Below are positions 9 through 31,512 of a stretch of DNA of 64,000 nt, one piece after another. Source of the stretch: Auanema rhodensis (lineage: Eukaryota; Animalia; Nematoda); the NCBI GenBank assembly GCA_964057225.1, contig OZ059896.1:18414001-18478000 (forward strand), read 5' to 3'. The notes beneath the pieces were generated by a model. It made no database searches and was not told the origin of the DNA. It saw nothing but the letters and a program-made list of their open reading frames with translations. Numbering within the stretch: position 1 is the stretch's first letter; every line of letters starts with the position of its first letter. Made by a program: the position numbers and the translations under genes.

Positions 9-410
9 TGTAATATCCTTGATTTGGATATTAATGTTCCATGTTATTGACCCTTAGATTGATGTGTTGTAAAAGAAAACAATAAGATTTGAGGAAGAGA
101 GAAAGATTTATTATAAATAAAAAACATTTAAACAATAAACAAATAAAGATAAAGATAAGTCCGCCAACTGAAGATTCAGTTGAATGGCAAGCTTATATAG
201 CGAATGTTATCAGCATTTTCCACGAAAGGTTATAAGTTGTCAATGACAATTATAACTATCTCAGAAAATGCTGAGGCTGCAAAATATAACTGATAACATA
301 ATACACTAAGACAAGAAACTAGAATTATAAAATATAAAATATAAAACACAGAATAAAGAAATACATAAAAATTATAGAAAGAATAAAGTAAAGAATTATA
401 AAGTATAACA
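9..410 (-). repeat. 3' LTR, family A copy 1
   Basis: 402 bp, near-identical to 8027-8427 and to the reverse complement of 13329-13729. Confidence 0.96.
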
Positions 411-467
411 TGCTACCGCTCTTGAAGTCCTGTGTCCTCACAGGTATGCATAAGGTTTCCAAAATTT

Positions 468-3400
468 TCATAATGTTGCAGCAAGCTTTTTGATGAGATC
501 CTTATGTACTTTTCTCATCTTTCCTTGACTCATTTCCAATTCCACATATGAGTTGTATACGCCTGTAATTTTGAACGGTTCATTATAAGTGGGTCGCAAT
601 TTGCCGTGAACCGTCATATCCTTCAATAGTACCATTTCACCTATTTCAAATATACGTGATGCTATTCGGTTACTATTATTCAGCCGATTTTGTTGTTCAA
701 TTGATTTTAATTGAATTTTTTCTTGAATAGAATCCCAGGTATTTTTCCGGTTTTCATTTCTTTCCAATAATTCGTCATCTTCAGGAGAATTTAGATGAGG
801 TTGTCCTGGTAATTGACGGTCCATAGGTAGTCGTGCGTCTCTTCCAAATAGAGCAATGTATGGGCTGATTCCGGTAGTTGTACTTGGGATTGTATTTAAT
901 GCGAATGTGATTTTAGGTAATTGTGAGGCCCATTGAGAGACACGGTTTTCAGCACAAGTGGATAAACATTCCTGGATGGTTCGATGTAGTCGTTCCACTT
1001 GACCGTTTGTATTTTTGTGATATGGCAGAGAGAAGGTTTGTACAATTCCAAATTCGTTGCACATTAACTTGAATTCTTTAGATATAAAATTTCCTCCATT
1101 GTCAGACACGATGCTCACTGGTGGTCCAAAAATGAAGACGAAATTCGTCAGGAACTTTCGGACTGTTTCTTCGGCATTCTGTGTGCGTAAAGGTATGCTC
1201 GTTATCCATTTCGAAAAAGCATCTTGAATAGAAAGAATATATTTAAATCCATTAGTGCTAGGGGAAAAAGGTCCTGTCACATCCATATGAATCCTATCAA
1301 ATGGTTTTTGTGGGGTAACAAACTTTCCATATGGTTCTCTCGTTGTATCATGTTGATTTATTTTCCTTTTTGCGCATGTCAGGCATTGGCTGACGATCTC
1401 TTTCGCATCTTCCATCATATTTGTCCAATGGAATCTTCTTGATAATGCTGCATGTGTTCTTTTGATTCCTTGATGCGCTCCAATTCTTGCGTCTTCATGA
1501 AAAAGTTTCGCAAGTACTTGATTCAATGTCTTTTGTTTTGGAATCATAATCCTTGGAGTAAGATATTGTTTGTTAGGTCGAGCATGCAAAACTCCGTCGA
1601 TAACAATATATCTATCGCTATTAATCTGTTTAGGTTGTTCCGTTAACATATCAGCAATAGTTTCCTTAATCCATGGTGTTCCTTGTTGTAACTGAATTAG
1701 TTTGTCGGTATCCAGAGTTTCCACATTGGTTACATTTATGAGATAGTTGATGGTTTCTTGGATATCCGTTAAACTTGTTGTTGGCGTTGTCTTCTGTAGC
1801 TTCGGTTTAGGACCATCGTTAGCTTCGTTGCCTATGTATCTGGATAGTGCATCACATACACTATTCATACGTCCTGGACAGTACATAATCACAATATCAT
1901 ATTCCTGGATCATTAACTGATATTTCGCTAGTCTTCCAATAAGATCTCTTCTACTCATTAGACTGGTTAGTGGTCGATGATCCGTTATTAGCTTAGTTGA
2001 CGTGCCTAAAACATATGTGCGAAATTGTTGTAATGCGTAGACGAGTGCCAAAGCTTCTAATTCGATAGGTGGGTATTCTCTTTCTGTAGGTGAGAGCTTC
2101 CTACTTGCGAACGCAACAGGGTGTAATCTATTTCCTGTATCTTGTAGTAAGACTGCTCCAATTGCAATAGTACTAGCGTCACTTTCAATAACAAAAGGTG
2201 CTCCATTTGTTGGTGGCTTCAGAACTGGTGCTGTGCATAGAGCTTTCTTGAGAGTCTCGAATGCTTTTTCACGTTCTTCCGTCCATTCGAAATCTTGATC
2301 CTTGTGTGTGAGTTGATACAACGGTTCGGCTATTTTGGCGTAGTCTCTGATGAATCGCCGAAAATAATTTGTCATTCCAAGGAATGAACGAATAGCGGTG
2401 ACCGTTTTAGGAGTTGAAAATTTCTTAACGGCTGTAATTTTTGATGGATCAGGTTGTATTCCATCACGACCAATTATAAATCCAAGAAATTTAACTTGTG
2501 TAGCTGCAAATTTGCATTTACTTAGTTTTGCTTTCATTCCTAATCCTTGTAAAGCTTGTAACACTTCTTCTATATCCTCCAGATGTTGTTCAGCTGTGTT
2601 TGATATAATGAGTAGATCATCCAGATAAACAAAAAGTCGACATTTTACTTGATTTTGCAAATAGCGAACAGCTGATTGAAATGTATGTGGAGCTCCACAG
2701 AGACCCATCGGCATTCTGCAATATTGATAAACTCCTGATGAGGTCACAAATGCAGTGAGGTGACGGTCTTCTTCACGTAAAGGAATTTGAAAAAATCCCG
2801 ATACGAGATCGATGTTTGTGAAGTATCGAGCTCCTGCAGTGCTGTCGATTATTTCTGGTATATGAGGAATAGAATAAGTCTGTTTCTGTGTGACACTATT
2901 GAGTGCACGGAAGTCCGTTACAAAGCGGAATGAGTTGTCTTTCTTCTTGACTAAGACGACTGGACTTGTAAAACTTGATGTTGATGTTTCTATTACTCCT
3001 TGGTCCGGCATTTCTTTTACTTGACGTTCAACTTCATCCTGTTTACCCAAAGGAACTCGATATGATCGAGATTTGGGCAGGTCCATATCGGTTCTCAAAG
3101 TGATTGAATGTTCTATTGGTCCTTTGAATAATCCAATGTTCCGATCTTCGTTAAAAAAAGCATTTTTGAATCTTCTCAACATAGTTTTGAGATTTTGACG
3201 TTGATTTTTAGATAGATCCGTTGATTCGAATTTTAAGTTATCGAAAGGATTCTTCTCAAAAATAGGCAATTTATCTGACCAATCAGCTTCTGGTGGAATA
3301 TAGTCCGGTATATGTGGGATTCCAATTTCTTCTGGTATTTTTCCTTTTCCAATAATGGTGTTTCCTGTTAACTTCACCTCATAATTTGCTGTATTGATGG

Positions 3401-4232
3401 CGAATATTGTGAGTGGTGAAGTCTTGATAGCAGTAGGTGTGAATTGAATAGGTCCATTTCCACATCGTATAAGAGCGTATTGTTTTGGTTGTAGTTCTTT
3501 TGCCAATTGTAGACGAATCATAGCTTTAGTTCGGGGTGGAATAATAGATTCTCTAATGTTTATAATTGAAACGATGTCTGAACTGACGCGAAAGCTCTTC
3601 TGGTTAGCGGATAATAATGGTAGAAAATGGTTTCCAACTATTAATTGCTTGCCTAGAGCTTGTAGAGAAGTTGTTATTCCTTTTTCTTCTAATGCTTTCA
3701 TGATGTCCAAACCAAGTAACATTTCAGTAGGACAATGTTTATCCTCAGAGATTAAAAATGTGTGTGAAAGATGGTATCCAGCAATAACAATGTCCAACGT
3801 TATTGTACCCAGAAAGTTGAATATTGATCCATTTGCTGCGGTGGCAGAGATTTTAGTTGAGTTGAAATTCTCTTTTCCTAAATAGCGTACTGATGATTCC
3901 TTCAAATATGAAACAGATGCTCCGCTATCCCATAAAGCTACGAGTCCTCTGCCTTCTGCTTCAATTCTTATATATGGGAGTTCTCTTTTGTTCGTTGCAC
4001 AGCATCCAACAAAAGGTATAATAATAGGAATAAAAGTGATGACAGTAGGAAAATATCTTCGAATAGTTTCGTCGTCGGCTGGAACATCGATGTCAGCGTT
4101 GAGTAGTTCGTGTTGTTCAACTGCATTCACATTTAAGATAGGAACTTTCTCTTTGATATAAGATACAACAATAATGTATAATGCTGATCCAAAGATTAAT
4201 ATAACTATCATAACACCTGCAGAGATAAACAT
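468..4232 (-). CDS. pol: Env TM anchor and tail fused to Pol (aspartic protease, RT, RNase H, integrase)
   Basis: N-terminal TM (GVMIVILIFGSALYIIVV); LWDSGAS; RT MPMGL and YLDD; RNase H ESDAS/ELEAL/TDHRPL/DALSR; IN HHCC (FHED..AHQG..CLTC) and D-D-E (HMDV, SDNG, QVER); open 1254 aa. Confidence 0.96.
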   Translation of the reverse strand: MFISAGVMIVILIFGSALYIIVVSYIKEKVPILNVNAVEQHELLNADIDVPADDETIRRYFPTVITFIPIIIPFVGCCATNKRELPYIRIEAEGRGLVALWDSGASVSYLKESSVRYLGKENFNSTKISATAANGSIFNFLGTITLDIVIAGYHLSHTFLISEDKHCPTEMLLGLDIMKALEEKGITTSLQALGKQLIVGNHFLPLLSANQKSFRVSSDIVSIINIRESIIPPRTKAMIRLQLAKELQPKQYALIRCGNGPIQFTPTAIKTSPLTIFAINTANYEVKLTGNTIIGKGKIPEEIGIPHIPDYIPPEADWSDKLPIFEKNPFDNLKFESTDLSKNQRQNLKTMLRRFKNAFFNEDRNIGLFKGPIEHSITLRTDMDLPKSRSYRVPLGKQDEVERQVKEMPDQGVIETSTSSFTSPVVLVKKKDNSFRFVTDFRALNSVTQKQTYSIPHIPEIIDSTAGARYFTNIDLVSGFFQIPLREEDRHLTAFVTSSGVYQYCRMPMGLCGAPHTFQSAVRYLQNQVKCRLFVYLDDLLIISNTAEQHLEDIEEVLQALQGLGMKAKLSKCKFAATQVKFLGFIIGRDGIQPDPSKITAVKKFSTPKTVTAIRSFLGMTNYFRRFIRDYAKIAEPLYQLTHKDQDFEWTEEREKAFETLKKALCTAPVLKPPTNGAPFVIESDASTIAIGAVLLQDTGNRLHPVAFASRKLSPTEREYPPIELEALALVYALQQFRTYVLGTSTKLITDHRPLTSLMSRRDLIGRLAKYQLMIQEYDIVIMYCPGRMNSVCDALSRYIGNEANDGPKPKLQKTTPTTSLTDIQETINYLINVTNVETLDTDKLIQLQQGTPWIKETIADMLTEQPKQINSDRYIVIDGVLHARPNKQYLTPRIMIPKQKTLNQVLAKLFHEDARIGAHQGIKRTHAALSRRFHWTNMMEDAKEIVSQCLTCAKRKINQHDTTREPYGKFVTPQKPFDRIHMDVTGPFSPSTNGFKYILSIQDAFSKWITSIPLRTQNAEETVRKFLTNFVFIFGPPVSIVSDNGGNFISKEFKLMCNEFGIVQTFSLPYHKNTNGQVERLHRTIQECLSTCAENRVSQWASQLPKITFALNTIPSTTTGISPYIALFGRDARLPMDRQLPGQPHLNSPEDDELLERNENRKNTWDSIQEKIQLKSIEQQNRLNNSNRIASRIFEIGEMVLLKDMTVHGKLRPTYNEPFKITGVYNSYVELEMSQGKMRKVHKDLIKKLAATL

Positions 4233-7141
4233 TCTGTTGAGGGATCCAGCAAAGAAATCAACTCCTCGTTCCCATAGTGAATATTTTGAGTAGAACTAAA
4301 AAGTTTGTTACTTTTTGTAAACCATTCTGATAAGCCTGGCAAATTCGCTTGATTCGTGATAACTCGTAGAAAATTTCTATGAGGATTGGTAGCGAAAATG
4401 TGTCCATATGTTAGGCTTATTGTTCTAACTAAGTTTTCATCGGTGATATTTTCATAAAGATTTCTTTGTGAAAATCGAATGGCTGCTAGATCGGGATACT
4501 GATCTGAACCAATGTTTAAAGCAGTTACGTTTGCAACTCCGTTGAGGGATTTCCATTCTCCATCCTCTTTCCATATATCATTTTCTACTGTTTCACATGG
4601 AATTTCAGTTCCATATGCTTCCAAATCTGCTGAATCTTGAGGTGCAAAGAAGAGGCGGTCATCATCCGTGATGACGGGTGTTTCTAAATAACACTTATCT
4701 TTGTATGTGTGGTTGCGATAAATGTGAATTGGTTCTATTGGCTGACAGGTTGAAACCCGAATAAGATTCCGCCCAATTATTCGAGCCACTATATCATCTC
4801 GTTGCATAATAGATCTGATAGCAATCGTAGGATTGATATTAAATATAGCTTGCCATGTCTTAATAAGTTCAAGTTGAGCATGACATATGCTGTGATGTTG
4901 ATGATGAAATTCTTCGACCAGTATGGTTCTCATTCGTTCAAATCCATAGTTGAGTTTGTTGATGGTAGTTAATGCATCTCGATGTCGAAGTATAGTATTC
5001 TGGTGATCAGTTAAGTGAGTGCCGAATAATTCTTGAGCTTTCTCTATGCTTCCAATCATGGGTTGCATTGATGTCATCCCTTGAATAGTACTAATTGTTT
5101 GTTTTGTAGTAGATGATGTATTTACAACAGGTTTTGAGGTAGCACTAAGAAATCGTGCAGTTGGCGTAGTTTTGGTGGTGATAGAGCGACTGAATACTCT
5201 TTTTGTAATCTCTTCAGGTGCTGGTTTTGAAAACCATGACATTAAATCAGTTAATTGTTTAGCGTCAATATTGATGTTACGGCTGTAGAGATCTTCTTTA
5301 TTCGAAGGCATCGGTATTCCAAAAATGGTTTCTCGGTTTCTGAGTGTCCAGTTATCCAACAGCTTTAATTTCATTTCATATACTTGATCTTTCACTTGTC
5401 GTTGCATAAAATGACTATGAAAGAACAGTTTCATTCGGTAATATTCTATCAGTTGAGGTTGAGAATACTGATAGCGTAGTTCACGAAGTAATTCTTTTGC
5501 TTTATATACCACAGAACGTGGATCTCCAAATGTGAAGTTGAGATGGTTTTGATATACTGTGAATATCAAAAATTCGAGTGGTGGCACATATTCTGTTTCG
5601 GATAAGATTGCAGGTATTTGTATCAATTCCCATAATTTATCTCTTGCAACCGAAATTGTAGAATTGCCTGGTTTAACTATTCTTTTTATATAATTGATAG
5701 GAAGTCGGTGTGCTAGTTGACCGATGACAAAACTAGGCTCCATTTGTTCGATCCACATTTTTGTAATCATCTTGCTTTCTTCTCCTCCTAGAGCATGTAG
5801 TAAGAGAATATTCGGATCGCGGAAGTCTTTTAAATTTGCCCAGTAATCTATAGTATGATCAGTAATGTTCAAAATATGGACAGCTGACAGCAAAAATTGA
5901 TGATATCGAGCAATAACAGTCAGGTTCTGATATTCGTTGCTAACTGATTGATAGTGATACCAGTTATGAATATATCGTATGGTATTTCCGCCAGACGTGA
6001 CAGTATATCTAGCAAACGGTAGATCCAATATTTGAATAGGAGTTAACTTATATTCCATTTCTGAGCGAAATGACGCAATTAAGGATGAATTTGTTGATCG
6101 TTTATAGCGTTGGCGTGAAGGATCCATTTGATTATCCAAATAACTTGTTAGATCCAGTAGAGAATATGCATGCGGATAATCAATTAACGAGACAAGAGTC
6201 TCAGTAGTGGATTCAAAAATTGGTGAGGTGTTGGCTAAGACAAGTGCTGTTTCTAGACTTGATATTAGCAGTGTTTGATCTCCAAGTATTCCATACAGAG
6301 GTCCAATACGTGTGTATTGGCATGGTGCTCGGGGTGTGGGTGGTTTCCAAACTACTGAACCATCTCCAAATGTACAGCTTCCCATTTGAGCTTTACAGCC
6401 TTCTGCGTTGACAATTAAGTCAGATACAATAGTATTGTCCTTTAAATTTGTAATAACTCCTCGCTCCATCACAAATTGAGTTAAGTTGGCGCATTGAGTA
6501 AAACTGAAGAAACGTTCCGGTTCATATACTGGCTTAGGAGCTTCATATGTAAGTGGATTAGCGCTCAACAGTTTTTCATTTTTCCATTTCTTGTCTCGAG
6601 CAGCTATACGGCATTCTTCTACAGATACATATCCATTACCAATGATGGTGTCGTTGCTTTCTCGGAACCAAAATTGATCCGTTACACATAATCGATAGAT
6701 GCGTGTATAACACTTCCACGCTTCCCATGTTACGACGGTTTGTTTAGGAATGAACAATTCAACGTTAACTTGATGAGCTTGTTGAATTGCTTTCCGTTGG
6801 CATCCTGTTATCTCTGGTGGTGTCATCAGAATTCCTCCTTTATGAGCTAAACATAGTTGATATGAAGCATTCACAGTGGGAAGCAGAAATGTGCAGATTA
6901 TTGTTGTGAGCAGGAATGGTAATGCAATAGTATTTATATTGAATCGAGGTTTCCATCGTCTTTGATTGCCTTGATTCTCTCTGAGATAATTGTCGCGATT
7001 ATTCCTGGCAAAGTTGTCTCGATTTTCTCTTTGATAATTGTTGCGAGGTTCTCTCGAATGATGATTACTCTCCATTGAGTAGTTGTTTCCATAATTTTGT
7101 CGAGGGCCAGAGTTCCTGTTGAATTTATTAAACTCTTCCAA
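4208..7141 (-). CDS. env: Gag C-terminal N/R-rich tail plus gB-like class III fusion glycoprotein ectodomain
   Basis: Internal signal peptide IALPFLLTTIICTFLLPTVNA; Cys pattern shared with family B; furin site RQRYKR; gB-like segment ICHAQLELIKTWQAIFNINPTIAIRSIMQRDDIVARIIGRNLIRVSTCQPI...CYLETPV; many N-x-S/T sequons. Confidence 0.85.
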   Translation of the reverse strand: MEEFNKFNRNSGPRQNYGNNYSMESNHHSREPRNNYQRENRDNFARNNRDNYLRENQGNQRRWKPRFNINTIALPFLLTTIICTFLLPTVNASYQLCLAHKGGILMTPPEITGCQRKAIQQAHQVNVELFIPKQTVVTWEAWKCYTRIYRLCVTDQFWFRESNDTIIGNGYVSVEECRIAARDKKWKNEKLLSANPLTYEAPKPVYEPERFFSFTQCANLTQFVMERGVITNLKDNTIVSDLIVNAEGCKAQMGSCTFGDGSVVWKPPTPRAPCQYTRIGPLYGILGDQTLLISSLETALVLANTSPIFESTTETLVSLIDYPHAYSLLDLTSYLDNQMDPSRQRYKRSTNSSLIASFRSEMEYKLTPIQILDLPFARYTVTSGGNTIRYIHNWYHYQSVSNEYQNLTVIARYHQFLLSAVHILNITDHTIDYWANLKDFRDPNILLLHALGGEESKMITKMWIEQMEPSFVIGQLAHRLPINYIKRIVKPGNSTISVARDKLWELIQIPAILSETEYVPPLEFLIFTVYQNHLNFTFGDPRSVVYKAKELLRELRYQYSQPQLIEYYRMKLFFHSHFMQRQVKDQVYEMKLKLLDNWTLRNRETIFGIPMPSNKEDLYSRNINIDAKQLTDLMSWFSKPAPEEITKRVFSRSITTKTTPTARFLSATSKPVVNTSSTTKQTISTIQGMTSMQPMIGSIEKAQELFGTHLTDHQNTILRHRDALTTINKLNYGFERMRTILVEEFHHQHHSICHAQLELIKTWQAIFNINPTIAIRSIMQRDDIVARIIGRNLIRVSTCQPIEPIHIYRNHTYKDKCYLETPVITDDDRLFFAPQDSADLEAYGTEIPCETVENDIWKEDGEWKSLNGVANVTALNIGSDQYPDLAAIRFSQRNLYENITDENLVRTISLTYGHIFATNPHRNFLRVITNQANLPGLSEWFTKSNKLFSSTQNIHYGNEELISLLDPSTECLSLQVL

Positions 7142-7547
7142 GGGTTTCTTGAATTGTTGCCATTGTTCCGTTCGAAATCTCGTGGCTGCTGATGGTTCCT
7201 TTGGTTCCTATTTTCCTTCATGGTGATCTTCTGAACTGCAGAGATCAACTCTTGCATAGTTGAGTTTTCTTCATGCTGTTTTTTATAGTTAGCACGAATT
7301 GCTTCTTCAAAACGTGCTGTCCTTTTTGCTTCCTCATAAGTCTTTGGATCTTTTCCTTGAACAATTATGCCTAAATCAGCCTTCAATCCATTTAAGAAAG
7401 CTGAACTTAATATGAGCTCTCTTTCTCGATCAGTTGGGCTCATAATACTGGAAGCCATTTCTTCCAAGTATGAGGAAACTGAGTAACAGTTTTCTCTCCT
7501 TGCGTCGAGCGTAGCAACGTCGCGATCGTGAAATTCCTTTCCGTGGC
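6934..7547 (-). pseudogene. gag: gag capsid region, 5'-deleted and frameshifted
   Basis: AFLNGL...DPKTYEEAKRTARFEE matches copy 2 gag; lacks ~0.92 kb present in copy 2 (~14206-15130). Confidence 0.85.
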
Positions 7548-8013
7548 TTTGTTTAAGTCTTTGTTTCAACTTGAATCAACAATCAAAAAATTATGAGAGG
7601 AAGGTTTAAATTCAAATATGACAAATGATACAGCGGATGTTATTTTCTTACAGTGGCCATTCTGTTAGTACAAACTTGTAATCTTTATCAAAAATATTGC
7701 AAATTGACTTTATTAAGGTCCAATTTTGCTTATATCAAACAGCTTTTCCATTTCCAAAAAATATATATTTTTTGCCACAATGAAAAATCAAAAATACAAC
7801 TGCGCAGAAACAAAAAAATCGAAAAGTTGGCCAATTCAGTATCTCACCCTGCGCAAAATATCAACCCTGTTTATTAAAAAAATGAGTGAGACCCTTCGTA
7901 CTGAATTGGAAAGAGAGGTGGTAGCCCAGGGAAATAGCTCAAAAAATAAATTCTCTTTAACTGAATGATAATTCATAATTTAATCGAGTTCGAAAATCGT
8001 AAAAAGATGCTAA

Positions 8014-8026
8014 GGTGGAACCTCCA
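8014..8026 (-). promoter_or_regulatory. Primer-binding site complementary to the tRNA-Gln 3' end
   Basis: TGGAGGTTCCACC directly after the 5' LTR; complement of ...GGUGGAACCU-CCA. Confidence 0.85.
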
Positions 8027-8427
8027 TGTAATATCCTTGATTTGGATATTAATGTTCCATGTTATTGACCCTTAGATTGATGTGTTGTAAAAAAAACAAT
8101 AAGATTTGAGGAAGAGAGAAAGATTTATTATAAATAAAAAACATTTAAACAATAAACAAATAAAGATAAAGATAAGTCCGCCAACTGAAGATTCAGTTGA
8201 ATGGCAAGCTTATATAGCGAATGTTATCAGCATTTTCCACGAAAGGTTATAAGTTGTCAATGACAATTATAACTATCTCAGAAAATGCTGAGGCTGCAAA
8301 ATATAACTGATAACATAATACACTAAGACAAGAAACTAGAATTATAAAATATAAAATATAAAACACAGAATAAAGAAATACATAAAAATTATAGAAAGAA
8401 TAAAGTAAAGAATTATAAAGTATAACA
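8027..8427 (-). repeat. 5' LTR, family A copy 1
   Basis: Direct repeat of 9-410 with about one indel. Confidence 0.96.
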
Positions 8428-8861
8428 CCACGTTTCGGTTTAACAAAACACTACAACGCCTAGAGTTTGTAACAAGTTAGCGGCTATTATTGAATGCAAC
8501 ACTCGGTGATGCTCTCGCATATTTTCTTTGCTTTGAGAATAAAATTATCAACGATACGTTAATAGCCAGGCGCCCCATTGATTTTTCAAATAACATTAAT
8601 ACAATGTATATATATTGTGATATCGTAGAATATTCCATTCTCGGTAATGTGAAAGCTAATTTACTTGCATGTTTACCTGTACCACCTCCTACTGAATTTG
8701 GTAAAATGATTGCCAAAACGTTTAATCCTATTCGTTATGTACCAATCACTAAGCAAACACTCGATACTATACGTATTGAAATTTTAGATGAATTTGGCCG
8801 CCCTATGCAATTTAATTATGGTTCTACAGTTGTTACATTACATGTTAAAAATGTGAAATAA
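8428..8861 (+). pseudogene. Maverick minor capsid (penton-like), 3' part
   Basis: MYIYCDIVEYSILGNVKANLL...PIRYVPI...IRIEILDEFGRP..FNYG..VVTLH; interrupted by the LTR element. Confidence 0.8.
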
Positions 8862-8866
8862 ATGTT

Positions 8867-9277: not shown

Positions 9278-9318
9278 TAGAGGAAAATAAAAAACAACCA
9301 CACACAGTCTACTCACTT

Positions 9319-9489: not shown

Positions 9490-9535
9490 AACTGACCACC
9501 TAATGTAGCAGGTGACGCTTTAATGGCAAAGTTGA

Positions 9536-13328: not shown

Positions 13329-13729
13329 TGTTATACTTTATAATTCTTTACTTTATTCTTTCTATATTTTTTATGTATTTCTTTATTCTGTGTTTTATAT
13401 TTTATATTTTATAATTCTAGTTTCTTGTCTTAGTGTATTATGTTATCAGTTATATTTTGCAGCCTCAGCATTTTCTGAGATAGTTATAATTGTCATTGAC
13501 AACTTATAACCTTTCGTGGAAAATGCTGATAACATTCGCTATATAAGCTTGCCATTCAACTGAATCTTCAGTTGGCGGACTTATCTTTATCTTTATTTGT
13601 TTATTGTTTAAATGTTTTTTATTTATAATAAATCTTTCTCTCTTCCTCAAATCTTATTGTTTCTTTTACAACACATCAATCTAAGGGTCAATAACATGGA
13701 ACATTAATATCCAAATCAAGGATATTACA
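13329..13729 (+). repeat. 5' LTR, family A copy 2
   Basis: TG...CA; reverse complement of 9-410. Confidence 0.95.
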
Positions 13730-14797
13730 TGGAGGTTCCACCTTAGCATCTTTTTACGATTTTCGAACTCGATTAAATTATGAATTATCATTCAGTTAAA
13801 GAGAATTTATTTTTTTGAGCTATTTCCCTGGGCTACCACCTCTCTTTCCAATTCAGTACGAAGGGTCTCACTCATTTTTTTAATAAACAGGGTTGATATT
13901 TTGCGCAAGGGTGAGATACTGAATTGGTCAACTTTTCGATTTCTTTTTGTTTCTGCGCAGTTGTATTTTTGATTTTTCATTGTGGCGAAAAATATATATT
14001 TTTTGGAAATGGAAAAGCTGTTTGATATAAGCAAAATTGGACCTTAATAAAGTCAATTTGCGATATTTTTGATAAAGATTACAAGTTTGTACTAACAGAA
14101 TGGCCACTGTAAGAAAATAACATCCGCTGTATCATTTGTCATATTTGAATTTAAACCTTCCTCTCATAATTTTTTGATTGTTGATTCAAGTTGAAACAAA
14201 GACTTTGGAATTTGAAAGATGCCTTGTTTGGTAATTCATTGTTATCCAGTAACAATTGAGATTTTGATTTGTCCGCCATACTCACTTCTCTAATTTATGA
14301 ATCACATTGTCACATAATCATATCCTATCATCATCTTAACAATTAATTATATTCACATTTTTTTCCTCTCTATAGTTTGTTTTTGTATGAGTTCATTAAT
14401 TAATTAATCTTCAACCCATATTATTATATATCTTTTTTTTTCTTCGATTTTTTTTTTCATGTTATTCACTAATTTATTCACTATTAACTATTCATATTCT
14501 TATCTTGTTTACTAACTTATTCCACTATTTTACATTGTAGATTGTTCTGACTTTCCTCCTTTTCCAAAACGGCAACCTCCAAGAATAATTATACGGATAC
14601 GCCTTTCCGTACCTCTCAAAGATTAAGAGACAAGAGAAATCGTATTTCTCGATTTCCTTTTCCCGATAGTGACGACTCGTTTGACAACGATTTAAGTCCA
14701 TCGGACGACGAAAAAACGCCAACACACTTGGCTGTAACACCGAAAAAAGAGAAAAACTCCCCAGCGCGAAAAACTACCTCTGAAGCTCCTACTCAAC

Positions 14798-15412
14798 ATG
14801 AGACCACATGAGCAATCAAACAGAGATTCAACTCTGGAAACGCCTAATTTAATGGCATCTCCAGAGTTGACCAAAAACATAACAGAAGTTCTAGGCAGTC
14901 CACACTGCCCCAAATACGATGGTAGCCGAAGCTTTCGATCGTACATCGATATATTTAACCGATTCGCGAATGCTGCGGGACTTTCGGTAATTGAAAGAAT
15001 TTTTCTTCTTCCTCTGCTGCCTCAGCAGAATGATTCTGCGATCTCTGCATATAACTCGATTCCTTCCGAAATTCGTGAACGAGGGCCTTGGAAAGACCTT
15101 GTTTTACAATTGGCAGAGTTACTTTGCCCTGCCACGGAAAGGAATTTCACGATCGCGACGTTGCTACGCTCGACGCAAGGAGAGAAAACTGTTACTCAGT
15201 TTGCCTCATACTTGGAAGAAATGGCTTCCAGTATTATGAGCCCAACTGATCGAGAAAGAGAGCTCATATTAAGATCAGCTTTCTTAAATGGATTGAACGC
15301 TGATTTAGGCATAATTGTTCAAGGAAAAGATCCGAAGACTTATGAGGAAGCAAAAAGGACAGCACGTTTTGAAGAAGCAATTCGTGCTAACTATAAAAAA
15401 CAGCATGAAGAA
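14798..15412 (+). pseudogene. gag: gag capsid domain, copy 2
   Basis: CPKYDGSRSFRSY...QGEKTVTQF...AFLNGL; joined out of frame to env by a deletion. Confidence 0.85.
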
Positions 15413-17129
15413 CCTGACTGTTATTGCTCGATATCATCAATTTTTGCTGTCAGCTGTCCATATTTTGAACATTACTGATCATACTATAGATTACTGGGCA
15501 AATTTAAAAGACTTCCGCGATCCGAATATTCTCTTACTACATGCTCTAGGAGGAGAAGAAAGCAAGATGATTACAAAAATGTGGATCGAACAAATGGAGC
15601 CTAGTTTTGTCATCGGTCAACTAGCACACCGACTTCCTATCAATTATATAAAAAGAATAGTTAAACCAGGCAATTCTACAATTTCGGTTGCAAGAGATAA
15701 ATTATGGGAATTGATACAAATACCTGCAATCTTATCCGAAACAGAATATGTGCCACCACTCGAATTTTTGATATTCACAGTATATCAAAACCATCTCAAC
15801 TTCACATTTGGAGATCCACGTTCTGTGGTATATAAAGCAAAAGAATTACTTCGTGAACTACGCTATCAGTATTCTCAACCTCAACTGATAGAATATTACC
15901 GAATGAAACTGTTCTTTCATAGTCATTTTATGCAACGACAAGTGAAAGATCAAGTATATGAAATGAAATTAAAGCTGTTGGATAACTGGACACTCAGAAA
16001 CCGAGAAACCATTTTTGGAATACCGATGCCTTCGAATAAAGAAGATCTCTACAGCCGTAACATCAATATTGACGCTAAACAATTAACTGATTTAATGTCA
16101 TGGTTTTCAAAACCAGCACCTGAAGAGATTACAAAAAGAGTATTCAGTCGCTCTATCACCACCAAAACTACGCCAACTGCACGATTTCTTAGTGCTACCT
16201 CAAAACCTGTTGTAAATACATCATCTACTACAAAACAAACAATTAGTACTATTCAAGGGATGACATCAATGCAACCCATGATTGGAAGCATAGAGAAAGC
16301 TCAAGAATTATTCGGCACTCACTTAACTGATCACCAGAATACTATACTTCGACATCGAGATGCATTAACTACCATCAACAAACTCAACTATGGATTTGAA
16401 CGAATGAGAACCATACTGGTCGAAGAATTTCATCATCAACATCACAGCATATGTCATGCTCAACTTGAACTTATTAAGACATGGCAAGCTATATTTAATA
16501 TCAATCCTACGATTGCTATCAGATCTATTATGCAACGAGATGATATAGTGGCTCGAATAATTGGGCGGAATCTTATTCGGGTTTCAACCTGTCAGCCAAT
16601 AGAACCAATTCACATTTATCGCAACCACACATACAAAGATAAGTGTTATTTAGAAACACCCGTCATCACGGATGATGACCGCCTCTTCTTTGCACCTCAA
16701 GATTCAGCAGATTTGGAAGCATATGGAACTGAAATTCCATGTGAAACAGTAGAAAATGATATATGGAAAGAGGATGGAGAATGGAAATCCCTCAACGGAG
16801 TTGCAAACGTAACTGCTTTAAACATTGGTTCAGATCAGTATCCCGATCTAGCAGCCATTCGATTTTCACAAAGAAATCTTTATGAAAATATCACCGATGA
16901 AAACTTAGTTAGAACAATAAGCCTAACATATGGACACATTTTCGCTACCAATCCTCATAGAAATTTTCTACGAGTTATCACGAATCAAGCGAATTTGCCA
17001 GGCTTATCAGAATGGTTTACAAAAAGTAACAAACTTTTTAGTTCTACTCAAAATATTCACTATGGGAACGAGGAGTTGATTTCTTTGCTGGATCCCTCAA
17101 CAGAATGTTTATCTCTGCAGGTGTTATGA
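15410..17129 (+). pseudogene. env: env C-terminal ~570 aa, copy 2
   Basis: Translation identical to copy 1 from NLTVIARY onward. Confidence 0.88.
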
Positions 17130-17718
17130 TAGTTATATTAATCTTTGGATCATCATTATACATTATTGTTGTATCTTATATCAAAGAGAAAGTTCCTATC
17201 TTAAATGTGAATGCAGTTGAACAACACGAACTACTCAACGCTGACATCGATGTTCCAGCCGACGACGAAACTATTCGAAGATATTTTCCTACTGTCATCA
17301 CTTTTATTCCTATTATTATACCTTTTGTTGGATGCTGTGCAACGAACAAAAGAGAACTCCCATATATAAGAATTGAAGCAGAAGGCAGAGGACTCGTAGC
17401 TTTATGGGATAGCGGAGCATCTGTTTCATATTTGAAGGAATCATCAGTACGCTATTTAGGAAAAGAGAATTTCAACTCAACTAAAATCTCTGCCACCGCA
17501 GCAAATGGATCAATATTCAACTTTCTGGGTACAATTACGTTGGACATTGTTATTGCTGGATACCATCTTTCACACACATTTTTAATCTCTGAGGATAAAC
17601 ATTGTCCTACTGAAATGTTACTTGGTTTGGACATCATGAAAGCATTAGAAGAAAAAGGAATAACAACTTCTCTACAAGCTCTAGGCAAGCAATTAATAGT
17701 TGGAAACCATTTTCTACC
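17105..17718 (+). pseudogene. pol: TM plus protease, truncated pol
   Basis: LWDSGAS; matches copy 1 up to GNHFLP. Confidence 0.9.
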
Positions 17719-17759
17719 TAAAATTATTCTAAAATTATTTCTAAAATTATTAAATACTG

Positions 17760-18140
17760 TGTCACATCTGCAAGCACATGGTAAACATGTGCGCGCTATT
17801 CAAAAAGCGGGAGCCTGAACAAGCCCCGCCTACAACATGGGACACACATGACACTCTTGCTTCTGGCCTAACCCAGATAGGTTGTCTTATAGTCATGTAA
17901 GTCTCATCTCTATATCATTTATATATATACTCTATTTAATACTTTATTATATCTCTTTATATTCTTTCTTAATGTAGTTCTTATATTGTATTTTCTTGTT
18001 ATCTGATAATGAATCCTTTTCTCTTTAAGTATTTGTCTTAATAAGGAAATCGGGGTGTTCGGGTCTGCCTACCTAAGGAACAAGGTAGAAGTACATATAT
18101 CTTCCGACCATGAAAAGACGGGAAGAAACAATATGTAACG
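17760..18140 (+). repeat. 5' LTR, family B
   Basis: TGTCAC...GTAACG; few differences from 25490-25872. Confidence 0.95.
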
Positions 18141-18153
18141 TGGAGGTTCCACC
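18141..18153 (+). promoter_or_regulatory. tRNA-Gln PBS
   Basis: TGGAGGTTCCACC, identical to the family A PBS. Confidence 0.85.
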
Positions 18154-19292
18154 TTGCTTACTTTACTGTTAATTTATTGACAGCAAGTTTACGAGACTTT
18201 TGGACTTAATTACCCAACAGTGAGGAGTAACCGAGCCGTGCACCATGATTTCCCCAAAAATTATTTTGGCTACCACTTCTCCTCCGCTCAACAAAAACTG
18301 GGAGGTTTCTGAGACGTTTGGGGAAACTATCAGACAATAGTTTTGACGAGCGTTACCTTTTTGTTATGCACGCGCGTGCTATTTTGATTCATTATTTTAT
18401 GATGTGAATGTCCAGTGTGGCAACAGAGCTCACTTTTTAGCTGAGTTGTTTGGAAGCTGGAGGCTGTTGGGATAATTTTATTTACGATTTTTGATTTTAT
18501 TTCACATCCAAGGGTTCATCAGGGTTCTACTCCTGTTAACTCTTTTCTTATTAGTTCAGAGATAATAAGAATATTTAAATTCCTACCCACCCAAGTCCAC
18601 TCTACGTCTGCCAACGTTTCCTTTTTCCTATATTATTGACAGATTACTGAATTTAAACTCCTATATCAATCTTTAATTACCTTCTAAATCTTTTGAAATT
18701 AAATTAAAAATTATCTTAATTAAGATTTATTTTGAAATTCTTTCTACAAATCTTAATAAACTTTATAAAATTGAACTTTATATACGAGATGAGACATTTT
18801 TGTTTACTTTAAGCTTACTCACATTCAAATAGTTGGCCCACGCGTACCAGCTGTTCGGCATGTGTAATCAATAACAGCTGTTAAAATTTAAAAGTTTTCA
18901 AACAGGCTTAAGGCACCATCTGTGATTTCTTATTTGTCTCTAAGCTGACATTAGTGATTATAATATTCAAATATCACGACAGTTGGTCAATGGTTGTTTA
19001 CCATAAGCGCTAACATCTGGTGTCGTGACACATGGCTGGAGGCGGAGCTTGAAGCTTCAACGATCCTCCTTCATCAGACGCCATTGTCACAAACGTTTTT
19101 ACTGAAGTCTAGTTGCTTCCAGTACGCGCTCTTATATTCATCTAACTGTATTCTCCAGCCACCCTGTCGGACTCAGACATCAGCGACGAAAACAAAGATC
19201 AGGAACAAGGATTACAAGAGGTACGCCAAGTTTTTGAATTTGATTCTAAAAACTTAAATACTCCATCCACCTACCTCTCTCCTTTTGAGTTT

Positions 19293-20430
19293 TTGAGAGA
19301 AGAAGGTGATTCCTCTTCATCTTCTCACTCTTCTCCTCTAACAATTAAGACGAGAAGTAAAAGCAGAAAGGCCATCACTGAGGAAACACCTCCTACTACA
19401 GTACGAAATAGATCACCAAGTCGGTGGGCCGCTCCTATAACTAAAGCTTTTGAAAGAAAAATGACGCCTACCTCTCCATCTCCTAATTCTAATGTTGCTC
19501 CACCCTCTAGAAATATGGCAACTATTTTGAATTGCCATCTCTGTCCCAGGTATGACGGCTCTCGTAGCTTTCGTTCTTTTGTTGAATCTTTAAAAAGATT
19601 TTTTAATGTTATGAATCTAAGCTTACCTGAGAGACTATTAATTTTACCTCTTCTTTTGGAATCAAATGAAACAGCTCTCTCCTTGTATAATAGTATTCCT
19701 AGTGGCATAAGAACTAATGGCCCATGGATTGTTTTGATGGATTAGCTCACTGAGCTTTTAGCGCCTAAAACAGATAAAAATTTCACCATAGCGCTTATTC
19801 ATCGAATACAACAAGGAGATAAATCTGTTCTTGATTTTAGTATGGAATTTGAGAGAATGGCAAGCACCATAATATCACCAATGGATCCCGAGCGGGACCA
19901 ATGTTGAAAACGGCATTTTTAAATGGTTTAAAAGAGGAACTGGGTATTGCGGTTTTAACTAAAAACCCCGCCACTTATGAACAAGCTAAGAATTTAGCTA
20001 GGTTTGAAGAAGGCGTTCGGAATAGCTTCATGAAAAGAAATGAAGACACCAGCACCTTGAAGGAGCTCATAAATGCTTTACAACATAAATTAAGCTTTAG
20101 TGAAGAAAGAGAAAGAAGTAGGAATAATAATAATAATAATAAAAATTATAAAAATAATAAAAATAATAAAAGAAATAATAACTGGACTCAGCACAATAAT
20201 GGCTCTAATGATTATGAGCGAGAGAGAGAGCGACCTTCTGCCGTACGTTATAATAATAATAACTCGCAGAACGGGAAAATGAATAGGCGTCCTAACCCGG
20301 GAAACCGCCCATTTGCGAATGGCAGAAATGCCGATAGCTCGTCTTGGAACCCTAGGCCTAGTTCCCCAAGAAGACAAAGACCATCAGCCAATGGGAATGG
20401 TAACTCGAGGGTATACAGCGTACCCCATTC
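19293..20430 (+). pseudogene. gag: gag family B (stop plus frameshift), Asn/Arg-rich C-terminus
   Basis: CPRYDGSRSFRSF, AFLNGL, NPATYEQAK homologous to family A gag. Confidence 0.85.
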
Positions 20431-23340
20431 ATGCCACCGGTCACGTTGTGCCTGCCTTTATTGGCACTCTCATGCCTTCCCATTGGGTCGGCAAAATATC
20501 AGATTTGTGCTCATTCTGAAGGGGGTATATTAGTAACACCTCCTGTGGTCACAGGCTGCCATAAGGCAGAAATTGAAAAGGCTCACAGTGTTGAGGTAGA
20601 AATATATCTACCAAAAGCTGAGATAGAGTCATGGGAAGGATGGAAATGCTATGTGAAAAAGTATACAAGCTGTGTGAGAGATTTCATGTTTTTGAGAGAT
20701 CGTAACACCACATTTTCTCAAATTGAAACAGTAGATAAGAAAGATTGTGTTCGAGCACATAGAAATCGTATGTGGAATGATAAAATCATGAATGCCCAAC
20801 AGCATTCAGTTTTTGAAACACCATTAAACGAGCATAATCCAACTCGCTCGTGGTCCACTGAAGAATGTGTAGAAATTGAACAATTTGTATTGAAGCGAGG
20901 GATAATAACTAGATTGAAAGAAGATCACATTGTATCAGATTTATTTATAAATACTGATAATTGTAAAGGAAATGAAGGGTTTTGTGCAACTGGTGAAGGT
21001 GCAGTTATCTGGCAACCACCTATCCCATCAGTTGTCTGTCACTATCAAAAACTTGGCCCCTTCTCCGCCATGTTGGGTGATCATATTCTTCTAGTTCACT
21101 CTATTGAAAGCGCTTTTGTTCTCCAAAATCATTCCACATCCGCTCACGTTCAATCTTGTTTCGAATTCGCTGTTTTTAAATCACAATGTGATCTTCTGAG
21201 GCAATTATCCAATTTACAGCATATCCCCGTGTTTATAATTTGCTTGATCTTTCCAATACTTTGCTTAATGCTGATAGACGCAGAAATAAACGTAATGCAT
21301 TACCTCAAAGACATTGCTCTTTCAGTGATGATTATCTTTTTGTTAATGCGAAATCCCAACCATATGCGTTTCCATTTCTAAGACCTACTTTCATTTTTGG
21401 ATCTGCATCTATCACTAAGTTTTACGCAAAATATATGAGATATGCAGCTACATCATCTTATGAAAGTTTGCTCCAATTCGCGATAGATAATCCACTGTTC
21501 ATTGACACAATTGTTAGTTTAGGATTGACAAAAGATCACATAACTAACTGGGCAAAGTCTAATAATTTCAAAGATCCCAATCTTTTGATTTTACAATGTA
21601 TGGGTATAGAGGAAATTAAACTGGCTACTAGACAGATGATCAATAGCATGAAATTGGATGATCTTATCACTCAAGTAGCTCGTCGTATAGAAGTTCCTCG
21701 GTTAAAAAGATCTCTGATGAAATCTACAACATCCATAGAAGATTTCTTTCGAGGAATGGCTCACGCAGTAGTATATCAAGCCACAATTCTTGATGGTACA
21801 CAAACAGTTCCATCAATCGAACAGTTGGTAAGAACCTTATATCCATCTATATTACCACGCAGTGGAAATATGAATGAATCTGAAATTATTGCACCTGCTC
21901 AAGGCATGTTATTCATGATCCAACAACAATCGGGAAAAGAACAAATATCTCGTGACATGCAAGTCAGTCGACAACAAAAAGCTGATGCTACTGTTAGAAA
22001 CAACCAAGAGCAAGATTTAGCAATTATATCCAAGCTGCCTGACTATCACAACCTTTATACAAAGAATAGTACAGCATATTATGGATTTCCTCCACAGTCC
22101 ATCGAATACCCACAGGAAAATCCTAAATTCAATAAAACAGAAGTTTTAGAATTCATAAGTTGGGTTAAAACTCAAATCACAACTGATAAAAATATGGTAC
22201 AGCATACTACTGTAACCCCAATAACTGCCATCAAAACTACAATTCGTAGTTTAACAACTCCTACCCCTAATGAGTACGAGAGAGGTCGAGAGTTGTATGC
22301 AGCAGAAGTATATGACAATGTTCTCCACAAATCAGAGCATAAAACTAAAACGATAATAGAAGTTGAATTATGGGTTTGAGAAAGCGCGTCTCTCCATAAT
22401 TGACGAATTTCATCAACAGTTTCACCATCTGTAAATCTCAAATGGAAACTGTAAAAAGCTGGCAAGCTATATTAAGTATACATCCTACAATAGGAGTAAG
22501 AGCTATGCTTCAGCGGGATGATATCGTTGCCCGATTTGTTGGAAGAAATGTTTAAAAATAACAACTTGTCAGGAAATAGAACCACATTTCATTTATCGTA
22601 ATCATTCTTACAATGATAAATGTTATGCAGAGACCCCTGTTTTAACACACGATAAACAATTATTCTTTGCTCCTATCGATAGCTACGATTTGAGCACTGA
22701 AGGACATGAGATCAATTGTGAACACAAAGAGACAGAGATTTGGTATGAAAATGGAACATGGAGAGATTATAAAGGTGACACACATAAAGTAGATAGTATT
22801 CATTCAGAAAAACATGATCATTATGCTGAATTGAGTAAACTTCGATTCACAGGGCGGAATTTGTTTGAAAATTCGACTGAAAAATCCTTAGCCCTATCTA
22901 TTGGATTAACTTATGGTTATAGTTTATCTACTTCACCTCACCATGATCTTCTCCGCGTAATTTCTCGTTCACATGATTGGCCTCAAACTTCCTCTTTCAT
23001 CTTCAAAGGAAGTAAACTTATAAGAGATGCCAGGAAAATTGTTTTTTCCAATTGGGATCTGTTCATTGACTTTTGTATAGGTTCAATTGAACGAACACTC
23101 ATTACCATCGGTTGTAGAACTCTGATATTATGTCTAATGATAGCATTATATTTCACTATAAAATGTTATCTCTCCCCTACTTCTATGTTAAAAATAAACC
23201 ATATCATGTTGAGCCCAACAGCTCCACCACTTGAGGGAGATGAGATTCATGAAACAGTTAGTGATGAATTGATGCGGAGCTATTTTCCCACCATAATAAC
23301 TTACATTCCTTTAGCCATACCTTTTGTATGTCACACACGT
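20431..23340 (+). pseudogene. env: env family B: gB-like glycoprotein with TM and tail, several stops and frameshifts
   Basis: Signal peptide then YQICAHSEGG; CKGNEGFCATGEGAVIW; RRRNKR; RDDIVARFVGRN; CYAETPV; TM LILCLMIALYFTI; PTAPP; YFPTIITYIP. Confidence 0.83.
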
Positions 23341-24874
23341 GTCACGTCCATTAACCAGTTTAATGTCGCGTAAAGACCTCATAGGTAGATTAGCCAAGTA
23401 TCAACTAATGATACTAGATTTCAACATAAAGATTGAATATCGTCCTGGCAAATTAAACAGTGTCTGTGATGCTCTCTCCAGGTATATAGGAAACGAAGCA
23501 AATGACAGTCGTCCTACTAAACCAAAGGACAAAGTAAAACCTGTTGATGCTTTCATTGCTCATATTACAACTATTTCTTCTATTGACCAACTAAATTGTG
23601 AAGAAATACGGAAAGTTCAAGCTGGAGTTCCCTGGATTCGCGAAGCACTTTCTCAAATTAATAATGATAACTGTCCGGCTAATATATCAGACCGGTATGA
23701 AGAACAAGAAGGCATATTACATGCAAAACAGGCGAAAAATTATTTGAAACCATCTATTATTTTGCCTCGAAACGACAAAATAACTGATGTTGTTATCAAG
23801 TTTTTCCATGAAGATTCCAAAATTGGTGCACACCTAGGTATAAATAAAACTACTGATGCGATTCGACGACGATTCTTTTGGACTAATATGGTTCCACAAA
23901 TAACTGAATTTATTAATCGTTGTACAAAATGTGCAAGTAGGAAATCTAACCCACACCAATCGTATATTCAACCTATGGGAAGATTTGTTATACCCGAAAA
24001 GCCATTTGATCGTATTCATGTAGATATACTAGGTCCTTTACCTCGCACTAATGATGGACATCGATACATCTTGAGTATTCAAGATGCTTTTAGTAAATGG
24101 GGAACAACTTGCCCATTAATAACACAAACGGCTACTGAAATCACAAAAGCGTTTGTAATTAGATTTGTTTTCATATATGGACCACCAATGAGTATGATAA
24201 CCGATAATGGTAGTAGCTTTTTGTCATCTGAATTTCAAGCTATGTGTAAACAATTTGGAATTAAACACACTACTACGTTACCATATCATAAAAATGCTAA
24301 TGGACAAGTTGAGAGACTTCATAGAACTTTGGAAGAAGCTCTCTCTTCATTCGTGAATGAATAACAAACTAACTGGGATATACACCTACCCAAAGTTATG
24401 TTTGCGATCAATACGTTACCAAACTCATCAATATCTATTAGTCCATATGTTGTATTATTTGGTCGGGATGCAAGACTTCCTATTGACCATCAATTGCCTG
24501 GAAATAATCGTCAAACTGAAGAACCAGCCAATCCTACAGAAGATTTTGTCAATAGATCGCTAATACAAAATGAAAGCACATCTAATATAGTGAAAGATAG
24601 AATTGAAACATGCACAAAGAAGAATGAACAACGGTACAATACACGAAATAGAACACAAAATAAAGAAATTCAGGTTAATGACTTAGTTATGATAAAAGTG
24701 AATTCTACTCGAAACAAACTAACACCTTCATTCGAAGGGCCTTATTTAGTTACAGCAGTTCAAAGATCTTTCGTCGTGGTTCAAACAGATAAAGGAAAAA
24801 GCAGAAGAGTACACAAGGACTTCGTTAAACCTTACCAACGGACAACATCTATTCCGGTTATCACAATTTCTTGA
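23340..24874 (+). pseudogene. pol: pol remnant: RNase H C-terminus plus integrase
   Basis: RPLTSLMSR, DALSR, HHCC, HVDI, TDNG, QVER, GPY; internal stop near 24362. Confidence 0.9.
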
Positions 24875-25489
24875 AGGTAGTTTTTTTTTTTTTTTTTTTT
24901 TTTTTACAAAATCAAATTATTGAAATTTTTTAAATTTTATTTTGTGGCATTTCTGATTGTAACACTTCTTTGTTGTTGATTGATTTTCTCTGAAAAGTCT
25001 GCTATTGTTTTACAAGGTTTTGTTTTATTACTCCAACTCTCATTGAGTAGATTTTTTCAACATTCTCTTGTGAATCTTGCTATTTTTTATGCTTAATCAT
25101 TACTTGTATTCACCTTATGGACATTAGTCATACGGGTTAAACGAGTTTTCATTTTTTTTGTACAGAACGGGCTTGACCTATTTTCAGGGTAACACCGTAC
25201 CTGTACAACTCAAGAAAATGAACGACTATATCACAGTCGAATGGTTTAGAAGCAAAGCTCTCGTTTACAAGCATTTCACTACTCAAGTGAATGGAATAGA
25301 ATCTACTCGACACTACATTTCGAATTCAACAAACTTGAAGAGACAATAGCTAAACTTTCAAATCATATTGTATACATTTTTTTTTATCCACTACACCATG
25401 ATTTTTTTTCCAACATCCAACTATCTTAAAAAGTGAATTAATTTATTTTGTTTTTGAACGAGGACGTTCAACTTTTTAAGGTGGGGGGA

Positions 25490-25872
25490 TGTCACATCTG
25501 CAAGCACATGGTAAACATGTGCGCGCTATTCAAATAGCGGGAGCCTGAACAAGCCCCGCCTACAACATGGGACACACATGACACTCTTGCTTCTGGCCTA
25601 ACCCAGATAGGTTGTCTTATAGTCATGTGAGTCTCATCTCTATATCATTTATATATATATACTCTATTAAATACTTCATTATATCTCTTTATATTCTTTC
25701 TTAATGTAATTCTTATATTGTATTTTCTTGTTATCTGATAATGAATCCTTTTCTCTTTAAGTATTTGTCTTAATAAGGAAATCGGGGCGTTCGGGTCTGC
25801 CTACCTAAGGAACAAGGTAGAAGTACATATATCTTCCGACCATGAAGAGACGGGAAGAAACAATATGTAACG
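25490..25872 (+). repeat. 3' LTR, family B
   Basis: Direct repeat of 17760-18140, preceded by the PPT. Confidence 0.95.
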
Positions 25873-31466: not shown

Positions 31467-31512
31467 GCAACTTCGCCATTAAAACGTCACCTGCTACATT
31501 AGGTGGTCAGTT

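Follow-up and report, generated by a model that had tools for sequence, protein, structure and literature searches.

Nematode endogenous retroviruses that carry env between gag and pro-pol were reportedly described by Sacco, Lau, Godinez-Vidal and Kaloshian in 2022 (J Gen Virol). The abstract of that study is said to present a continuous gag-env-pro-pol polypeptide with an Env like the glycoproteins of nyami- and chuviruses (mononegavirus/chuvirus-type, class III). We analyzed a 64,000-nucleotide (nt) stretch of Auanema rhodensis DNA (contig OZ059896.1, positions 18,414,001 to 18,478,000; hereafter the window), which is AT-rich eukaryotic DNA of 29-39% G+C. Positions 9-8427 of its minus strand are occupied by A1, a defective endogenous retrovirus of the Ty3/gypsy type (Metaviridae), and the env part of A1 lies at 3900-6960. 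The gene order is Gag, Env and then protease (PR), reverse transcriptase (RT), RNase H (RH) and integrase (IN). We compared A1 with a second copy of the same family (A2), with a copy of a divergent family (family B), with copies in public DNA runs and with database proteins. Elements of this kind are probably single open reading frame (ORF) endogenous retroviruses whose Env resembles herpesvirus glycoprotein B (gB). Their polyprotein is predicted to pass into and back out of the endoplasmic reticulum (ER) membrane, and signal peptidase, a furin-like enzyme and the protease encoded by the element would cleave it.

The elements of Sacco et al. are reportedly like A1 in having a Metaviridae-type pol, an env between gag and protease, and a class III Env, which here matches Pfam family PF24664. 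We saw no extra helicase or small ORF in the window element. The 2022 study is cited for nematodes by Chary and Hayashi (eLife 2026, PMC13524379). In the part of their article available to us, they describe GAG-ENV-POL "ancient errantiviruses" with an ENV of the herpes simplex virus (HSV)/gB type in Nematoda, Bryozoa and Platyhelminthes. The window elements resemble those errantiviruses, as that part presents them, in gene order, Env type, Ty3/gypsy pol, long terminal repeats (LTRs) and multi-copy young insertions. The same part handles GAG, ENV and POL as three ORFs and does not discuss frame continuity or membrane topology, and the words frameshift, fused and polyprotein and the stem splic- do not occur in the main text. 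An env in frame between gag and pol was reported by Arkhipova and Yushenova (2019) in the planarian element Burro/GYPSM1, which the available part of their article presents as the first such case (PMC6431247). Burro and the presumed intact form of the window element have in common an Env encoded in frame between gag and pol, as part of a single polyprotein. According to the same part of that source, Burro is 25-30 kb long and carries many cargo domains and an env of the gypsy-Env/F-like type with mononegavirus matches (PMC6431247). The window element, in contrast, is compact (about 8.4-9.4 kb) and has a gB-like Env. Our literature searches on the gag-env-pro-pol type of gene order and on nematode endogenous retroviruses returned nothing beyond PMC13524379.

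The in-frame gag-env-pol design is already published, and families A and B of the window are two new, fairly divergent members. What the window adds is this pair of divergent families, evidence for a continuous frame from natural copies, and a conserved motif on the flanks of Env that offers a testable guess at the protease sites. Retroviruses normally translate Env from a spliced message of its own, and frameshifting or readthrough keeps their Pol scarce. If our reading is true, capsid, fusion protein and enzymes joined in one membrane-threaded chain would be another solution to the problems of expression, targeting and stoichiometry, and would link the strategies of retroelements and RNA viruses. 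Flavivirus and alphavirus polyproteins have a cytosolic capsid, an internal signal, luminal glycoproteins freed by signal peptidase and furin, and a viral protease on the cytosolic side. A reading of the window made from its letters alone (the sequence-only reading) had called the topology flavivirus/alphavirus-like. That comparison is apt as an analogy in the way of working, but nothing suggests kinship: those RNA viruses are unrelated, use class II fusion proteins and do not reverse-transcribe.

Evidence for a continuous Gag-Env-Pol frame

A1 contains three long frames on the minus strand: 7575..6934 (the Gag remnant), 7207..4208 (999 amino acids, aa) and 4295..468 (1275 aa). In DNA of 35-38% G+C, open frames of this length go far beyond what chance would produce. 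The gag remnant includes the C-terminal part of the Gag core (7111..7547), which matches the Gag part of two database proteins, P0155 and P0156. The first frame break falls at 7110..7150, at the start of a tail rich in asparagine and arginine (N/R-rich), and the env frame is -1 relative to the gag frame. Within the 999-aa ORF, this tail (6938..7109, ending in RFNINTI) runs stop-free into RRWKPRFNINTIALPFLLTTIICTFLLPTVNA/SYQLC. The signal-like internal hydrophobic segment, IALPFLLTTIICTFLLPTV, occupies 6866..6937 and has a Kyte-Doolittle value of 2.14; it leads into VNA/SYQLC, with V-N-A before the predicted signal-peptidase cut. The Env ectodomain follows at 4296..6865. A second break, at 4208..4295 in the membrane-proximal stretch, is again a change of -1, here of the pol frame relative to the env frame. 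The pol frame includes the end of the ectodomain, the membrane anchor FISAGVMIVILIFGSALYIIVVSYI (about 4158..4232; Kyte-Doolittle 2.75), a tail with NVNAV, the linker YFPTVIT, and PR onward to IN. As it stands, A1 has an Env without an anchor in its own frame.

A2 and the family B copy are defective as well. A2 (13329..17818, plus strand) starts with an LTR at 13329-13729, ends where the family B LTR begins, and is 99.9% identical to A1 over 2310 nt. Its gag ORF (14738-15478) is fuller than that of A1 and holds the N-terminal part and the core of Gag in one frame; the Pfam profile Retrotrans_gag matches it at 1.8e-4, below cutoff. Near 15412, the loss of about 1.3 kb has brought gag next to mid-env. 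The C-terminal part of env lies at 15315-17129, and the region from the transmembrane (TM) anchor to PR lies at 17042-17818. The second break of A1 is also present in A2, at 17042-17129.

The family B copy (17760..25872, plus strand) has LTRs at about 17760-18140 and 25490-25872 that are 91-95% alike. Its ORF pieces on that strand are 19146-19745, 19853-20533, 20404-21381, 21192-22379, 22522-23373, 23315-24364 and 24365-24874. The region from PR to RNase H is missing, and a single in-frame stop occurs at 24362-24364. The Gag core and N/R-rich tail share the frame 19853..20533, and the ectodomain end, the anchor, a tail with KINHI, and YFPTIIT share the frame 22522..23373. Family B is open at both places homologous to the A1 breaks; its own breaks include one right at the signal segment (20404-20533). 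In A1, A2 and B alike, env lies between gag and protease. The sequence-only reading had stated that the Gag tail of family A reads in frame into the signal peptide and that the ectodomain of family B reads in frame into TM, tail and YFPT(V/I)IT. We see the former in ORF 7207..4208 and the latter in 22522..23373. Its remark that frameshifts fall at different places in the two families also holds, since A1 is broken at about 7150-7110 and at 4295-4208, and B at 20404-20533 and elsewhere. All of the strings that it quoted are found in the sequence.

Other natural copies of family A cover the breaks. Among the public runs listed, 13 hold at least part of the element, and 9 of them hold at least half of its sampled words. 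We compared the window with contigs from three public DNA runs that come from three studies (X1, X2 and X3) and that carry a family A copy about 99.5% like A1. In both break intervals, every covering contig shows a short length difference from the window that is not a multiple of three. These differences bring the flanking frames into register at both A1 breaks, as checked by hand. The contigs also continue through 7547, where a deletion in the A1 gag begins, and have a 30-nt in-frame difference from A1 in env.

The family A chain can be pieced together from several copies. A2 provides the N-terminal part and core of Gag; A1 provides the runs from core to first break, from tail to second break, and from anchor to the IN stop, each of them open; and the contigs bridge the breaks. 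Once joined, the frame would be about 2,450-2,500 codons long, which is like the relatives in size. These comparisons support the model that intact elements have one Gag-Env-Pol ORF and that the frameshifts in the window are copy-specific damage. The ancestral single ORF proposed in the sequence-only reading agrees with the in-register frames in X1-X3 and with the single-ORF relatives, but no copy in the window is intact.

We identified relatives through an exhaustive HMMER search with Env, which returned 223 proteins at E<=0.001; a word-based protein search with Env gave no match at near or longer lengths. The nearest database proteins for Env have 30% identity. A Pfam scan covered 19 of the 22 listed matches of at least 2000 aa (P0069, P0074 and P0092 were left out), and 13 of these 19 have Env upstream of PR/RT in one protein. 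The relatives are single proteins of 2256-2766 aa with the order Gag, Env, PR, RT, RH, IN. Among the gypsy-type proteins, the records of ten were consulted: four are gene models from Caenorhabditis or Acrobeloides, and the other six (P0014, P0031, P0112, P0015, P0055 and P0036; 2259-2535 aa) are encoded on contigs of 7928-12091 nt, which leaves no room for introns. The closest relatives in Pol are the Caenorhabditis proteins P0155, P0156 and P0157 (2256-2536 aa, 42-43% Pol identity). Pfam finds gag, PF24664 and pol domains in P0156 and P0157. In P0155 it finds PF24664 and pol domains, and the N-terminal part of this protein matches the window Gag by blastp. All pieces of the window elements are colinear with these three proteins.

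The remaining 6 of the 19 scanned proteins (P0027, P0065, P0067, P0071, P0122 and P0130) are relatives of the Bel/Pao type, in which a PF24664 Env lies in frame behind integrase. The same Env family is part of a retroelement polyprotein in both groups, but in the Bel/Pao type the Env is C-terminal and the pol lineage differs (Peptidase_A17). With Env at the C-terminal end, a single membrane passage suffices, and Pol is not downstream of the anchor.

Env and the predicted membrane topology

The Env of A1 matches PF24664, the Monjiviricetes fusion glycoprotein family, at 3e-12 (45.8 bits, cutoff 27). The Pfam profile Glycoprotein_B for herpesvirus gB scores 22.6 bits, below its cutoff of 43. We modeled a 917-aa piece of Env with AlphaFold2, using 40 relatives. 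The confident parts of the model are its beta-rich N-terminal 260 residues and residues 640-810, and it contains a beta-rich region (34-260), a helix (638-709) and a beta domain (724-805) with pLDDT values mostly of 70-97. Foldseek returned 111 matches to this model at E<=0.001, and the top ones were all herpesvirus gB (best E 3.3e-10, probability 1.00). Several class III traits are present: a beta-rich fusion domain, a long central helix, and a single membrane anchor C-terminal to the ectodomain. On the PF24664 match and the gB matches of its predicted fold, Env is a class III, gB-like fusion protein that lies between Gag and protease.

One stretch of the A1 Env (5070-6085, minus strand; residues about 374-712) contains about 120 extra residues after the furin-type site in comparison with the Caenorhabditis relatives. 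It comprises 338 unaligned residues in A1 and 221 in P0157, and it is helical, Ser/Thr-rich and of low model confidence. This insert may be a family-specific stalk or mucin-like region.

ORF 7207..4208 has 15 N-x-S/T sequons, and the 1275-aa pol frame has 4. A furin-type site, RYKR, is located in the A1 Env at 6109-6098, and 9 of 14 relatives have an R-x-K/R-R site within Env. Of 14 relatives, 10 were flagged for a signal-like segment before Env, and P0157 shows a weaker one. In the relatives, this hydrophobic segment lies 310-600 residues into the protein and is followed by small residues and a conserved Env start, (Y/F)Q(L/I)C...GG.L..PP. All 14 have a membrane anchor before PR. The protease D-S/T-G motif lies about 90-110 residues past the anchor in these proteins; the A1 anchor lies about 90 aa before protease.

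Between anchor and protease, the predicted cytosolic tail of A1 (3966..4157, minus strand) contains NVNAV (4130-4119), an acidic stretch and a conserved Pro-rich hydrophobic linker, YFPTVITFIPIIIPFV (4055-4008). The pattern (Y/F)(I/V)P(I/L)(I/A)IP(L/F)(V/I)(C/G) is found at 3996-4055 and at 23280-23340 and is conserved in families A and B and in P0155-P0157.

The sequence-only reading had also pointed to motifs like protease sites on the flanks of Env. Comparison with relatives lends these some support. The motif [ILV]-N-x-[VI] is present on both sides of Env in A1 and its three closest relatives; in B it is found only after the anchor. Among relatives, 6 of 13 carry the motif in the 60 residues that follow the anchor, and 5 of 10 carry it in the 50 residues that lead up to the signal; the background is 6-7.5% of equally sized windows. 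Because the sequences are related, these counts are not independent, and we treat the enrichment as a lead and not as a statistic. The arrangement of a cytosolic Gag, a luminal Env and a cytosolic Pol, with three kinds of cleavage, is a set of predictions that fit the hydropathy, the sequons, the furin-type site and the flanking motif.

Proposed synthesis of the polyprotein and its alternatives

In the mechanism we propose, translation would start at the Gag AUG, and Gag would stay cytosolic. The internal hydrophobic segment, placed 350-600 residues along the chain, would then act as a signal, bringing the chain into the ER, and signal peptidase would cut after the small-x-small site. The ectodomain of Env would be glycosylated in the lumen and split at R-x-K/R-R by a furin-like enzyme. 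The anchor would stop transfer, leaving the tail, PR, RT, RNase H and IN in the cytosol, tethered to Env until the protease cuts. Finally, the element protease would free Gag and Pol, likely at [IV]-N-[A/S]-[VI] motifs on both cytosolic flanks of Env. A1 is young and defective, yet recently integrated, which implies active helper copies in the genome. A1 and A2 also have a lesion in common, so both were likely mobilized in trans by intact copies. A more specific version of this model is tentative, and we stop somewhat short of favoring it. It envisages an assembly that is flavivirus-like and not retroviral. Each Env would have its own Pol attached to the tail and its own Gag attached to the signal anchor, both would be released by the protease at a conserved [IV]-N-A-[VI] facing the cytosol, particles would bud at internal membranes in a fixed 1:1:1 ratio, and A1 and A2 would ride on them in trans.

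Several points weigh against the threaded polyprotein. Without any intact copy in the window, the family A ORF is pieced together from A1, A2 and contig differences. Fifty substitution rows lie outside the comparison with X1-X3, and rare variants are lost from contigs; the majority copy could therefore contain a stop. The proteins from Caenorhabditis and Acrobeloides come from gene models, in which predicted introns may be present, and the relatives are akin to each other, so that counts among them are not independent. The Env model is moderately confident (mean pLDDT 65.6, pTM 0.38), with Foldseek TM-scores of 0.17-0.39. More distant relatives lack the flanking motif (it is missing after the anchor in 7 of 13). 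B and the relative P0004 have a Met just before the signal, so that some lineages may initiate Env separately. For a retrovirus, it is unusual to make Gag, Env and Pol in equal amounts. Between tail and PR there is also a second conserved stretch that is hydrophobic and Pro-rich (4052-3996 in A1, Kyte-Doolittle 2.08; also flagged in P0156). If this stretch spanned the membrane, Pol would be luminal and the model would fail; its four prolines and short length disfavor such a span.

The breaks in A1 could themselves be native. Gag, Env and Pol would then be separate but overlapping ORFs, connected by two programmed -1 ribosomal frameshifts in the manner of gag-pro-pol retroviruses. The two frame changes of A1 are indeed -1, the second is common to A1 and A2, and the gag frame holds a heptamer of the form X XXY YYZ about 20 nt ahead of the first break. 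That heptamer, however, has a C in its A-site triplet, a feature rated weak in frameshift work, and we read by eye no slippery heptamer in the second interval. Env would have no anchor unless the shift took place. Programmed frameshifting is also contradicted by the family A copies of X1-X3, which are in register at both places, by family B, which is open at both homologous places, and by the single-ORF relatives. We reject it and give it almost no credence. The breaks might instead be assembly or sequencing errors in an otherwise intact copy, as the nearly identical LTRs and the stop-free ORFs of 999 and 1275 codons would allow. This explanation is very improbable, and we reject it too: the length differences from X1-X3 are several letters each and not single-base homopolymer slips, and one lesion is common to A1 and A2, which are independently deleted copies. 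A1 also has a 0.93 kb gag deletion besides its 30-nt in-frame difference.

A different alternative accepts the continuous ORF as real and proposes that most Env is made from a message of its own, either spliced or internally initiated, with the threaded polyprotein minor or non-functional. Splicing of env is the normal retroviral arrangement, and family B and P0004 have a Met directly before the signal segment. The C. elegans element Cer1 uses a spliced accessory message, according to the available part of a published account (PMC10309623). A1, by comparison, has no Met near the signal, nor do 8 of 9 relatives. Only 1 of the 9 has a Met within 15 aa before it, which indicates that separate Env initiation is not a conserved feature. 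Nor does any stop separate the Env tail from PR; without a second splicing event, an env message would therefore continue into Pol. We saw no splice joints in the sense of the element in X12, the sole RNA-like run, although its 5 contigs cover parts of pol and little gag and say little on this point. We consider this alternative unlikely and prefer the threaded polyprotein.

Boundaries of A1 and other elements in the window

A1 is bounded by a 5' LTR at 8027..8427 and a 3' LTR at 9..410 (both minus strand), with TG..CA ends. The two LTRs are 99.75% identical over 402 nt. A GTGG target duplication, read directly from the flanks, is located at 8428-8431 and 5-8. A stretch beginning with TGG that resembles a primer-binding site adjoins the 5' LTR (8014..8026, minus strand; read directly). 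The 5' part of gag lacks about 0.93 kb upstream of 7547-7555. This segment is retained in A2, and its loss from A1 was missed by the sequence-only reading. The same reading also passed over the 1.3 kb deletion of A2, the second break that A2 has in common with A1, the -1 nature of both A1 frame changes and the Met before the signal segment of family B. Another small length lesion is present in the A1 gag near 7475. Contigs of X1-X3 and X12 contain a family A form without 6213 nt (799-7013, late pol to Gag tail), which is an internally deleted DNA derivative.

The pol of A1 (468..3965, minus strand) is complete in the Ty3/gypsy domain order PR-RT-RNase H-IN. Pfam places gag-asp_proteas at residues 111-200 of ORF 4295..468, RVT_1 at 449-608, RT_RNaseH at 699-799, Integrase_H2C2 at 923-979 and rve at 996-1093. 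Converted from residues, these positions correspond to PR at 3965-3696, RT at 2951-2472, RNase H at 2285-1899 and the zinc and core parts of integrase at 1529-1017; the stop is at 470-468. A single X12 contig of depth about 5 maps to 782-1208 on the plus strand, antisense to the integrase region of A1. It skips stretches of 43 and 46 nt with GT..AG ends (872-916 and 1033-1080). These resemble very small introns of the nematode type and would belong to an antisense transcript.

DNA resembling Maverick/Polinton elements occupies 8428-11500 and 26846-35287, and A1 sits inside one such copy: its flank at 8425-8600 is 94% like 32628-32456. The recognizable parts include an adenovirus-type protease at 9536-9958 on the minus strand (Peptidase_C5, 1.4e-3, below cutoff) and a protein-primed PolB at 27828-28688 (DNA_pol_B_2, 4e-13). 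They also include an ATPase-like ORF at 33090-33776 and an rve integrase at 34730-35287 (2.8e-9). Two nearly identical ORFs of 400 aa, at 10249-11457 (plus strand) and 29673-30872 (minus strand), have no Pfam match and may encode the capsid protein. Abutting the 3' LTR of family B, 25801-26767 on the minus strand holds two overlapping ORFs that, judged by their translation, look like a mariner-type transposase broken by a frameshift.

At least three tandem units of about 2.5 kb lie at 38900-47000, each with a 161-aa ORF and a 319-aa ORF, the latter containing a Cys/His cluster. A fourth 161-aa ORF is found at 46401-46886, and the ORFs of this array gave no Pfam match at E<=0.01. A long array of units of about 2.4 kb with ORFs of 120-200 aa and 29-30% G+C extends over 47300-64000, where the only Pfam match is a weak one to MSV199 (4.5e-3, below cutoff). 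A shorter tandem repeat at 12000-12279 has a period of 56 nt and about five units that are 91-96% alike.

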